Positions 12,001 to 15,000 of a stretch of 64,000 nt of DNA are shown piece by piece. Origin of the DNA: Escherichia phage ETEC-TG; the sequence record OR786310.1. One strand, 5' to 3'. A program made the position numbers. How positions within the stretch are numbered: position 1 is the stretch's first letter; each line of letters starts with the position of its first letter.

Positions 12001-15000
12001 CAGGATCATCATTAGCACGCTATGCCGGACACATAGCGAGCTAATAATAAGCCAACTACACCCCAACAATCATAACCATCGGTGACGGTTATTTCTTGTT
12101 ATTGCGTAGCTTGCAATAATTGCAAGCGTAATGACGCTTACACTTATTGCGCTGGCTTATTATTAGCATTATATGTAATTACCAAGATCATAACATTAGC
12201 GCAATAACAATAATCATTGTAATGGTTACAATATGAAATCATTAGCATGGCAATAATTATTGGGGGCAATGGGAGGATGATTATCATCATTCCGATACAT
12301 TGCACACTATGCACATAATAGAATAAAAGTCAATAATTTTGGGGGCGAAATGTTACCGCCACGGGCGGGAATGTTGAGCATCTTCTCTTAAACGTAAATA
12401 AAATCAGAAAATTCTTGATTTATTCTGGCTTTTATGTTAATAAACGTTTAAATAATAATCATTCTCATATGAATAATAGTCTGCTTGTCATGAGCGGCAT
12501 TAGTTGACATTGTTCCGTCATATGATGAAGTTGCCAAACCATTGATAAATAAGTGTTTGTGTGATTTATAATCAAGTGGTCCACCTTGTCGCTATGTTGG
12601 CATGAGCCTTGCATAAGTCATTGAATACGAATGATAATTATTCTCATTCTCATGATATTTGGGAATTGTCGCTGCGTGGACCTGACGGCCCGAAAATTCG
12701 CGTTAAGCACTTCTTACGTATACGCCATGATTTTTGCCATATCATATTGATTCTATTAGATATTCTTGCCATGATTGCCATGAAACAGGGTGTCCCGAAA
12801 TAATCTCTCCCCGTAGATATTTTGGGTTACTTTTTATACAAGAGTGGGGTGTCAAAAATAATCGGTATATATAGGATAATTGATAGGAATCCCCTATGAT
12901 AATTCGATTGTAATTCCTTAAGATTGATCGTATGATGTTGGTGATTGATGATTGCCATGAAAGATGGCTAACGATGAGAGGAGATTATCATGCAAGAGAG
13001 TAAAAATGTTCCGTTGAGTAGTTTACGTCTAATGAAGTTTTACAAAGCTTGGCTTGCTGGTGAGGTAGAAGGTCACACAACGAGTGGTTTGTGTATATGT
13101 TTGATTAAGTATGTAGAGGGAACATACCCTGATGAACTGTTACCTCGTCTACAACAGGAGATGAAATCACAGTTTATTAGTGCAGGACTAGATTACAATT
13201 TCCCGTTTAATGAAGGTGGTTATGAGGAATACACCTTCGAACATAAAAAACATATTTGCCATAAAAACAAACATCGTATACAATGGGTGTTAGATAGAAT
13301 TCAGGATTATGAAGGAGAGAAAAATGACAAATAGTATTCCGTTGAGCAGTGCAACATTGCTTCGCTTCTACAAAGCATGGATTGCCAACTATCCTGCAAT
13401 GAATCGCACAACGAGTGGCTTATGCGGTTGTCTGGTAGATTATGTAGATGATTTTGTTGGTGAGACAACTAGAGAAGAAGATAGAAGATGGCGTGATCAT
13501 TTGTTAGATCGTTTGAAATATGAAATGAGGAAACAATTTACATGTGCAGGGTTGGACTACAATCTTCCGTTCAATGCGGATTGCATGGATTACCTTTCAG
13601 AGTGTATAAACTTGGCGTGTCATACCAACACGTTACGTCTTCAATGGGTGAAAGATCGCATTGAAGATGCAAATAATGCTTGCATTGAATAAAAATGTCT
13701 GTATGATAGTTTGCATACCGCGCATAACAGATAGCCAATGAGGAGATTGAAATGTCAAATATGAAAACTGTATCCTTGTATTTAGCTAACACTGATCGTG
13801 TGCACACCCTTGCTAATGCAAGTCGTGTACTCGTGCAGTTCCGAAACTTTAAGCCGTCCGTTGTGACAGGCAGTGAAACGTGTGTGATCGATTTCATCAA
13901 TGAATATTTCCACGGGAATCCTGTTGCTCGTCACTTCGTGGAGAATATGAAAGATGCATAACATGAAACGTATGAAAATTCGTATTGAGAATGATGGTGG
14001 TTATAAAGGATTGGCACATGCAAAATTTCCACTTGTGTTGGAAGCTACAGTGGAATACAGTGGGCTTGCTCATGTGCGATTCTCGAAGATGATGGAAGTG
14101 CAGGAGTGGTTTTGGGACGAGATAGATGCACGAGAAGGGGAAGATTATGTTTTCTTTCCTCACGAATATGAAATTGTCTATTAAAGGTTGTGTGCAATGA
14201 TCACACCACAACAGAACGAAGCAGCAATGGATCTTCTTGACAGTTTGTATTTCGATAATTGGTACTCTGAATGTGAATGGATGAATGTGCAAACTCTGAA
14301 AGAGAAGACGGAAGCGTTGATTACAGTAGATCAATTTCTTGCAGAGACAGAAAGAATGAATTATGATATGGCATCTCGCGCACGACGCGTTTCCATTTTC
14401 AATAAAATGTTAGCATTATGGGGAGGTAGAAAATGAGACAATTCACTATACTGGCAGCTTATGTGCAATGTGTTCACGATTATGTTAGTGCTCATACAGG
14501 TTTGCTGGAAGTTACCAGTAAAATTGAAGGTAATATGGGTACTGTCTGTGTGCAACATACTTTATCCAATGTGCCGTTTAAAGTGTTCACTGTTGTAGCT
14601 GCCGATTACAATCGTGTAGATGTGCGTTTCTTGGATCATAATTTTCGTAACGCACTAGATAATATCGAAGATTATCTTCCCGTGAAACCTTTGTCATTTC
14701 CACCGAGTTGTGCAAATAATGTAGTGACAAACCTTAATGAAAGGAATGTGGCTATGCACAAAAAAGTCCGTCAACTGAAAACGCTGATGGAAATGCAAGA
14801 AGAGATTGAAAAAGAACTAAAAGAAGATTTTGGTATGCTTCCAAAAGACGCTTTGAAATGGTATGATGAACTAGGAGGAGAAAGTTATGAATAAAGAAAC
14901 TACTGTATATTTAGTGACTAAGAACACCCCAGGCTGGAGCCAATGCAGTACTGTTCCTTACAAGATCTGTGCAACATTAGAACTAGCACAACGTGCAGAA

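Follow-up and report, generated by a model that had tools for sequence, protein, structure and literature searches.

In a 64,000-nucleotide stretch of Escherichia phage ETEC-TG (OR786310.1; the whole stretch is hereafter called the window), two sequences resembling operators of the host iron repressor Fur, here called box A and box B, lie wholly inside the direct terminal repeat (DTR) of the genome. Their positions are kept across diverged lineages of Phapecoctavirus and in Justusliebigvirus, its sister genus, at ~30-60% sequence divergence. Judged from the sequence, both boxes probably bind host Fur. Our favoured reading, to which we assign a probability of roughly 0.35, is that they are genuine Fur operators inside the DTR and that they gate transcription initiated in the repeat, or running across it, according to iron supply. 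The kind of cis-element is already known; its location is unusual and conserved.

The whole window was scanned with the 19-bp Fur consensus GATAATGATAATCATTATC and matches were counted out of 19 positions. Within the repeat the scan identified two elements, neither with an assigned strand:

12448-12470, no strand: Fur-like box A, TTAAATAATAATCATTCTCATAT; the 19-mer at 12448-12466 matches at 14/19 and the 7-1-7 core at 12453-12467, TAATAATCATTCTCA, at 12/14.
12627-12653, no strand: Fur-like box B, two overlapping 19-mers offset by 6 bp, at 12627-12645 (14/19) and 12633-12651 (16/19).

The 7-1-7 core of box B at 12632-12646, TGATAATTATTCTCA, matches at 13/14, and the inverted repeat TGATAATnATTATCA is present in both boxes, with 1 mismatch at 12632-12646 and with 2 at 12453-12467. 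Box B has the register of a site for several dimers (12627 and 12633), box A being a single site. Overlapping sites placed 6 bp apart are the pattern of Fur site clusters (Chen et al. 2007, PMC2189734), and the register is partly automatic because the Fur consensus resembles itself when shifted by 6 bp.

Matches of this quality were rare outside a few zones. There were two 16/19 matches in the entire 64 kb, at 12633-12651 and 356-374. Three matches of at least 14/19 were observed in the DTR, compared with a mean of 0.063 in 2000 dinucleotide-preserving shuffles of the 329-bp repeat (P = 0.0005), and the 16/19 match had a P value of 0.001 in such shuffles. Over the whole gap at 11480-12990 the scan yielded 7 matches of at least 14/19, against 0.30 expected from shuffles, while the 7-1-7 core TGATAATNATTATCA with at most 2 mismatches was found 8 times in the window (0.73 expected), with five of these eight in non-coding zones. 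In the full 151-kb genome of phage Schickermooser, matches of at least 14/19 formed clusters only in the DTR, in the right-end non-coding region (150183-150762) and at 137134-137169; elsewhere they were single, at about 1 per 10 kb.

The window was identified by megablast as a phAPEC8-like E. coli myovirus (Phapecoctavirus, Stephanstirmvirinae), with ~75 records matching at 92-99% identity. Using the ends of these records, the repeat could be placed as follows:

12377-12705, no strand: direct terminal repeat, 328/329 bp, defined by identical record ends and the published repeat length, present as a single copy in the window.

A segment of 329 bp identical at both ends of the Schickermooser record corresponds to these coordinates, and its authors gave the terminal repeat as 328 bp (Korf et al. 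2019, PMC6563267). The first base of the BI-EHEC record is 12377 and its last is 12704; position 12377 is an exact start or end point in at least 7 records, and the record ends on the right map to 12704/12705. Justusliebigvirus records start at the base homologous to 12377, with the starts of Schickermooser and PD114 in the same alignment column. Both boundaries read GTTR/AGCA, where the slash marks the cut: aatgttg/agca on the left and cgcgtta/agca on the right. Since the right arm (1-12376) precedes the left arm and the genome ends fall at 12377-12705, the window is a permuted or collapsed representation of the genome. Box A starts 72 nt from the left terminus and box B ends ~52 nt short of the right DTR boundary. 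The core centre of box A is ~83 nt away from the left cut and the centre of box B ~66 nt away from the right one, and the corresponding distances in PD114, read off the alignment, are ~85 and ~69 nt.

The relatives have no annotation between the terminator at 11462-11482 and the ATG at 12990. A hidden small gene in the DTR was considered and rejected, as the open reading frames (ORFs) across it were not conserved in phiWec190 or PD114; with small ORFs unconserved and relatives unannotated, the region holding the boxes is non-coding. A search of 11400-13050 and 1-1000 against Rfam gave sub-threshold chance matches only. An earlier note on this DNA had described the motifs at 12455-12653 as a cluster at the edge of a non-coding region. 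The motifs themselves hold up, with three sites of 14-16/19, operator-grade matrix scores (below) and a position conserved in two genera, and so does the non-coding setting. The cluster is, however, not continuous and consists of two elements offset by ~180 bp, between which ~155 bp are poorly conserved and free of Fur-like sequence, and the note missed that both sit inside the DTR.

To assess conservation we aligned seven sequences, namely the window, Schickermooser, EF1-1, phiWec190 and phiWec186 (68-70% identity), and PD114 and muut from Justusliebigvirus. The DTR was resolved into five conserved blocks with diverged spacers between them. From left to right, the segments and their identities to the relatives were:

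12377-12425, no strand: conserved left-terminal block AGCA..TTCTCTTAAACGTAAATAAAATCAGAAAA.TCTTGATTT, with the cut after aatgttg and before agca; 65-92%.
Box A: 74-87%.
Middle of the DTR: 36-49%.
12614-12626, no strand: flank TAAGTCATTGAAT, directly 5' of box B, with a -35-like TTGAAT; 92-100% across both genera.
Box B: 64-79%.
12653-12661, no strand: flank TGATATTTG, directly 3' of box B; 89% across both genera when measured one base further right, over the 9 nt of 12654-12662.
Spacer before the right boundary: 20-28%.
12687-12712, no strand: conserved right-boundary block GGCCCGAAAATTCGCGTTA/AGCAC, with the second cut site; 81-85% across genera.

The left-terminal block, which is probably the context of the terminase cut, has 92% identity to phiWec190 and 65-67% to Justusliebigvirus, and 31 of its 50 columns are invariant. 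Box A of Justusliebigvirus, GCAAATGATAATCATTATC, matches the consensus at 17/19 with a perfect 7-1-7 core. Box B sites recur in 6-bp steps: three in phiWec190 and two in phiWec186 (best 17/19 in each), and three in PD114 and muut (best 15/19). The changes in the boxes between relatives thus stay on the Fur consensus or shift towards it. A pattern scan of IMG/VR for more divergent relatives returned 66 loci, almost all of them chance matches, and three relatives that added nothing new. A motif TTGAT/TTGAA(T) occurs four times in the DTR at conserved columns (12415-12420, 12542-12547, 12622-12627 and 12653-12658), two of the copies flanking box B, and may be a site for a second protein.

A 74-bp segment over the right DTR boundary (12649-12726) is ~85% identical to intergenic sequence in 242 of 5426 complete E. 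coli genomes. In NZ_CP024257.1 the copy is found at ~4529497-4529570, directly after a gene for a 185-aa serine recombinase, where an island ends by a tRNA-Leu gene. The island has no other similarity to the phage and its copy is without box B. A chromosomal island or a phage satellite could have borrowed this segment as a site of packaging or recombination. Since the right cut-site block occurs here without box B, the cut-site module and the Fur-like module are separable.

For calibration, we used nine Fur-controlled promoter regions of E. coli K-12 and a weight matrix built from ten real operator sites within them. The best consensus match per promoter region ranged from 12 to 16 out of 19 (n = 9), compared with 14/19 for box A and 16/19 for box B. 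Matrix scores were 19.2 bits for the site at 356, 18.6 for 12633, 14.7 for 12627 and 13.0 for 12448, whereas the real operators, each left out in turn, scored 7.7-17.2 bits. The site at 12633 thus exceeds all of them and ranks second in the window, and box A is above the median of the real sites. Twelve positions in the window scored above that median, nine of which are in three non-coding zones. An exact 15-mer, ATAATAATCATTCTC, is common to box A and the fhuA operator region of K-12, and the site at 356 shares TAAATGATAATCATT with entC.

Sites of the same kind were found at three other places in the window:

269-380, no strand: second cluster of the same motif family, with sites at 269, 298/304 and 350/356/362; the best is 16/19 at 356-374.
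11693-11717, no strand: Fur-like site TGCAATGATAACCATTATC in the right-end non-coding region; 15/19, 7-1-7 core at 11698-11712 with 1 mismatch, 13.8 bits.
12155-12294, no strand: three weaker Fur-like sites just left of the DTR, at 12155, 12203 and 12273; 14-15/19.

The earlier note had assigned the DTR motifs to the same family as those at 273-376, and rightly so: the 18-mer AATGATAATCATTCTCAT is matched with at most 1 mismatch at 359, 12451 and 12630. With up to 3 mismatches there were 10 matches, all at 301-377, 11696 or 12451-12653, compared with 0.19 expected, and none of 100 shuffles reached 10. The site at 11693 is identical in phiWec190, phiWec186, EF1-1, anhysbys and Schickermooser, and the equivalent region of muut has two Fur-like sites (14/19 and 16/19). 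Those at 12155 and 12203 are also present in EF1-1 and anhysbys, and all three in Schickermooser; they are weaker evidence than boxes A and B.

For the stretch at 269-380, conserved or recurring copies were found in 395 phage records, among them Vequintavirinae, Seunavirus and T5-like phages. An origin from a host promoter was rejected, as blastn gave no match to this cluster in the 5426 E. coli genomes, to which the DTR is matched via its right boundary block only. Within 319-477, the Fur-like sequence at 356-380 and the GC-rich segment that follows it, GCGCAGGGGCGGTGTTTGTCTCGCGCTCCCGTGTCCCCTCGCC, form a unit that is conserved both in Vequintavirinae (JES2013) and in Seunavirus phages of Salmonella. 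This unit may represent a small transcript under Fur control or a cis element of another kind; Rfam has no match to it, and the predicted fold of 376-560 was not significant (z-score -0.3).

In the left terminal repeat of a T5-like phage, several sites reach 14/19 or more and adjoin DnaA boxes (TTATCCACA); this phage also has 30 nt that are identical to 291-320 of the window. In T5 itself (AY587007.1) there are Fur-like sites at 9574 and 9580 (15/19) and at 9615 (16/19), and the sites at 9574-9640 correspond to the annotated copies 3 and 4 of direct repeat C and to palindromes G-I, by the 7.9% nick. A clustering of DnaA boxes as in T5 was looked for and not found in the window.

The boxes are located 340-540 bp 5' of the ATG at 12990, which agrees with the ~350-500 bp given in the earlier note, as does the paralogous family that it placed there. 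The nearest gene and a promoter-like element ahead of it are:

12990-13334, plus strand: first gene of the left-arm plus-strand block, a paralogue of 13309-13692; both match PHROG 2510, of unknown function.
12849-12877, plus strand: promoter-like element GTGTCA-17-TAGGAT in the leader between the DTR and the first gene, ~115 nt before the ATG.

A search with ten neighbouring ORFs gave no Pfam matches and no known DNA-binding or other domain. Iron-related genes were sought downstream of the boxes and none was found, functions being unknown throughout. The early promoters of the right arm form a family of their own, consisting of an A-tract, TTGACA, 13 nt and TGnTAAGAT followed by a 5' GC hairpin. 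The strict pattern has 9 copies at 996-8842, and repeat families add further copies up to ~9160. These strong promoters (985-9163) precede most of the small right-arm genes; GTATCACATAG follows the extended -10 element, and a GC hairpin, GGGCGGGAA..TTCCCGCC or GGCGGCAATGGTGCCGCT, is located at the 5' end of the transcript. A canonical early promoter in the DTR or leader was rejected, as both the strict pattern and the repeat families are absent from 11480-12990. Because the left-arm genes are tightly packed and without canonical early promoters, their transcription must start within 12377-12990.

Within that interval, the promoter candidates near the boxes are TTGAAT-18-CATTCT or TATTCT over box B, with a weak match to TTGAAT-18-(C/T/A)ATTCT in 5 of the 7 aligned sequences, and TTGATT-17/18 ahead of box A. 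Crude sigma-70 scoring on the alignment was too noisy in this AT-rich DNA because the Fur boxes themselves yield -10-like hexamers. The segment at 12814-12905, which contains the element at 12849-12877, was the only part of 12380-13000 detected across genera by blastn. In the leader alignment this element is nearly invariant and reads GTGT(C/T)AAAAATAA..GGTATATA(T/G)(A/G)G(A/G)ATAATTGATAGG, the block also being read as GTGTCAAAAATAA..GGTATATATAG.ATAATTGATAGG. We infer that 12849-12877 is a candidate for the main promoter of the left-arm operon. Fur bound in the DTR could not occlude this element, since it is situated ~200 bp downstream of box B, and simple Fur occlusion of the main promoter is therefore unlikely.

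Under our favoured reading, Fe2+-Fur dimers would sit on the single 19-bp site of box A and on the two to three overlapping sites of box B, in a 6-bp register, when the cell is iron-replete, and bound Fur would block RNA polymerase that starts in or traverses the DTR. The best candidate for a blocked promoter would be the weak rightward TTGAAT-18-(C/T)ATTCT under box B. Upon iron limitation Fur would leave, allowing extra rightward transcription out of the DTR towards the left-arm early operon from 12990, while basal expression of this operon would come from the conserved block at 12849-12877. Real Fur operators are the most economical reading because the boxes match like the best host operators, show the phasing typical of Fur, are conserved towards the consensus and share their motif with unrelated phages of the same host. 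The occurrence of the motif in unrelated virulent enterobacterial phages, including T5, is more easily explained by a shared host factor than by a shared phage protein.

Several observations weigh against this reading. The most invariant bases are those of the flanks TAAGTCATTGAAT and TGATATTTG and not those of box B itself, which hints at an additional or different ligand. In consensus scans and alignment scoring, the promoter candidates over the boxes score moderately at best and their -10 elements are not consistently conserved, and the best-conserved promoter-like block is ~200 bp 3' of box B, nearer to the first gene. The location of both boxes inside the DTR, at similar distances to the two cuts, suggests a role tied to the DNA ends. 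Phages of the phAPEC8 type form plaques on rich, iron-replete media, as in routine isolation, which means that an essential operon cannot be gated by Fur alone. A literature search for Fur boxes of lytic phages and for transcription in Phapecoctavirus turned up nothing relevant. Fur control of the early block, as proposed in the earlier note should the motifs be functional, is graded in two parts: the identity of the motif is strongly supported by the sequence, and control of the block by Fur is possible; simple control by iron is doubtful because the boxes are in the DTR, overlap no convincing, conserved sigma-70 promoter, have a promoter-like block ~200 bp downstream and precede genes without a link to iron.

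Chance AT-rich palindromes without function would draw on the AT-richness of both the non-coding region (~35% G+C) and the consensus, but composition-preserving shuffles reject them (P = 0.0005 or below) and the positions are conserved across two genera at ~30-60% divergence; shuffles and phylogenetic conservation together effectively refute this explanation, which we consider extremely improbable. The boxes might instead serve as operators for a DNA-binding protein encoded by the phage, or for some non-Fur protein of the host, the likeness to Fur boxes being coincidental or convergent. In favour of such a ligand, the sequence common to the phage copies, TAAAT(G/A)A(T/G)AATCATT(C/A)TCAT, extends beyond the Fur core, and their half-sites consistently differ, with TGATAAT on the left and ATTCTCA on the right, always in one orientation; furthermore, the invariance of the sequence on either side of box B points to a composite site of greater extent, and 30 nt identical to a T5-like phage go beyond the needs of a degenerate transcription-factor site. 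This is set against the lack of a protein with a known domain among the ten neighbouring ORFs searched, a maximal score against real operators, changes between genera that move towards the Fur consensus, and the presence of the motif in unrelated phage families of the same host, for which we know of no common regulator. A non-Fur ligand appears rather unlikely.

In another explanation, Fur or a different protein bound at the boxes would shape the DNA of the DTR for cutting or duplication by the terminase or for handling of the incoming end, much as IHF does at lambda cos, with no regulation of transcription. Each box is placed inside the DTR between a conserved cut-site block and the variable middle, the distances to the cuts are alike in Justusliebigvirus (~85 and ~69 nt versus ~83 and ~66 nt), no good promoter overlaps the boxes, and in T5 the sites of 15-16/19 fall on copies 3 and 4 of direct repeat C (9574-9640), inside the left terminal repeat and beside both the 7.9% nick and the calculated shear point at 9618. 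A conserved distance from the cut is what would be expected of a packaging accessory site, but such a motif should also be restricted to the packaging region and travel with the cut site. The family is found at 269-380, 12 kb from the DTR, and at 11693, outside any terminal repeat, and box B is absent from the E. coli island's copy of the right cut-site block, which makes this block a module of its own. In addition, helical phase is not preserved in the distance between the boxes (179 bp versus ~195 bp), and the phage would run a risk if its packaging depended on an iron sensor. We judge this role to be rather unlikely. It is also conceivable that the sites act as a sink, titrating Fur off host operators during replication and derepressing iron uptake and hence RyhB, to the benefit of the iron-dependent enzymes of the phage. 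Each genome unit carries at least 5 strong 7-1-7 cores in three non-coding zones, and class Ia and class III ribonucleotide reductases are annotated in the phage. Derepression of Fur-controlled genes by multicopy Fur boxes is the principle of the Fur titration assay, and some titration would be unavoidable if Fur binds at all. A sink, however, does not need fixed positions by the genome ends, and yet these are conserved across genera; the literature search gave no data on derepression of iron uptake during infection by these phages. As the purpose of the boxes, titration seems quite unlikely.

Additional features were observed around the genome ends. The element TTGATAG-N8-CTATGA(A/T)AA occurs twice, at 11502-11529, just past the last right-arm terminator, and at 12880-12907, in the conserved leader before the first left-arm gene. 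A bidirectional terminator hairpin, AAGGGCGCACCAAGCGCCCTT, is present in three copies (5494-5529, 10890-10925 and 11454-11489), the last of which marks the end of the right-arm genes, just ahead of the terminal non-coding region. In this region, 11632-11931 carries imperfect repeats with a period of ~127-132 bp (GATAACA...CAACAAC.AACCAAC), and the strand is A/C-rich over 11483-12376, with ~40% A and 15% G. The final ~120 nt before the left terminus in the Justusliebigvirus phage W22 (PV159336.1) contain 5-6 copies of (C)TATTTGTTG at ~20 bp spacing, the most terminal of which directly adjoins the AGC at the cut; at this place the window carries ATGTTR just twice (12350-12355 and 12371-12376).

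The anatomy of the DTR in this phage group is now fixed as two GTTR/AGCA cut sites, two Fur-like boxes and a variable core, which aids the annotation of genome ends. If Fur binds, a strictly virulent phage reads or exploits the iron status of its host at the ends of its genome. This would bear on how iron limitation in the gut alters infection by phages considered for therapy, for which phAPEC8-like phages are common candidates, and the hypothesis is cheap to test directly.

The closest known counterparts of the boxes are the Fur operators of E. coli (fhuA, fepB-entC, fepD-entS, fiu, fecI and others), with which they share the 19-bp consensus, the 7-1-7 core and overlapping sites in 6-bp steps. 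The host operators overlap the -35 and -10 elements of iron-uptake promoters, whereas the phage boxes cover no clear promoter, precede genes without a link to iron and are sited in the terminal repeat of a virulent phage. Host iron repressors also act on phage-borne DNA at stx1 of Shiga-toxin phages (Fur) and at tox of corynephage beta (DtxR), in both cases at single moron promoters in prophages. The sites described here instead belong to a 150-kb myovirus that is strictly virulent, where they lie in non-coding DNA of the genome ends, recur in several non-coding zones and are conserved between genera. A host architectural protein beside sequences recognized and cut by terminase is exemplified by the IHF site I1 in cosB of lambda; the protein and the motif are different, and lambda has cohesive ends rather than a direct terminal repeat.

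The arrangement is echoed in T5, whose cis-acting injection-stop (iss) region has no identified protein ligand. This region comprises direct repeat C copies 1-4 and palindromes E-I (9468-9640), and TTAAATGAGAATCATTATC and GAGATTGATTCTCATTATC within it match the Fur consensus at 15/19 and 16/19, respectively. As in our phage group, the sites of T5 are in a large non-coding region inside the terminal repeat near its inner boundary, where they form a multi-copy array. The T5 repeats are not known to have been assigned to Fur. The shear point of first-step transfer in T5 has been calculated at 9618, in an account that considers DnaA and never mentions Fur (Davison, preprint). The differences are that T5 has a 10-kb repeat, a two-step entry of its DNA and an array beside paired DnaA boxes, and that direct repeat C, TTTTTAAATGAGAATCATT..., is in tandem copies, whereas the DTR studied here has two isolated sites. 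It is a long shot, but virulent phages of enterobacteria that are large and have defined genome ends (the phAPEC8/phi92 group, T5 and probably the rV5-like phages) may recruit Fur as a structural or roadblock factor to conserved operator arrays in terminal-repeat or entry-proximal non-coding DNA, coupling entry, end processing or first transcription to host iron. If so, the Fur-like direct repeat C array at the boundary of first-step transfer would be part of the T5 injection-stop signal, which has been unexplained for decades.

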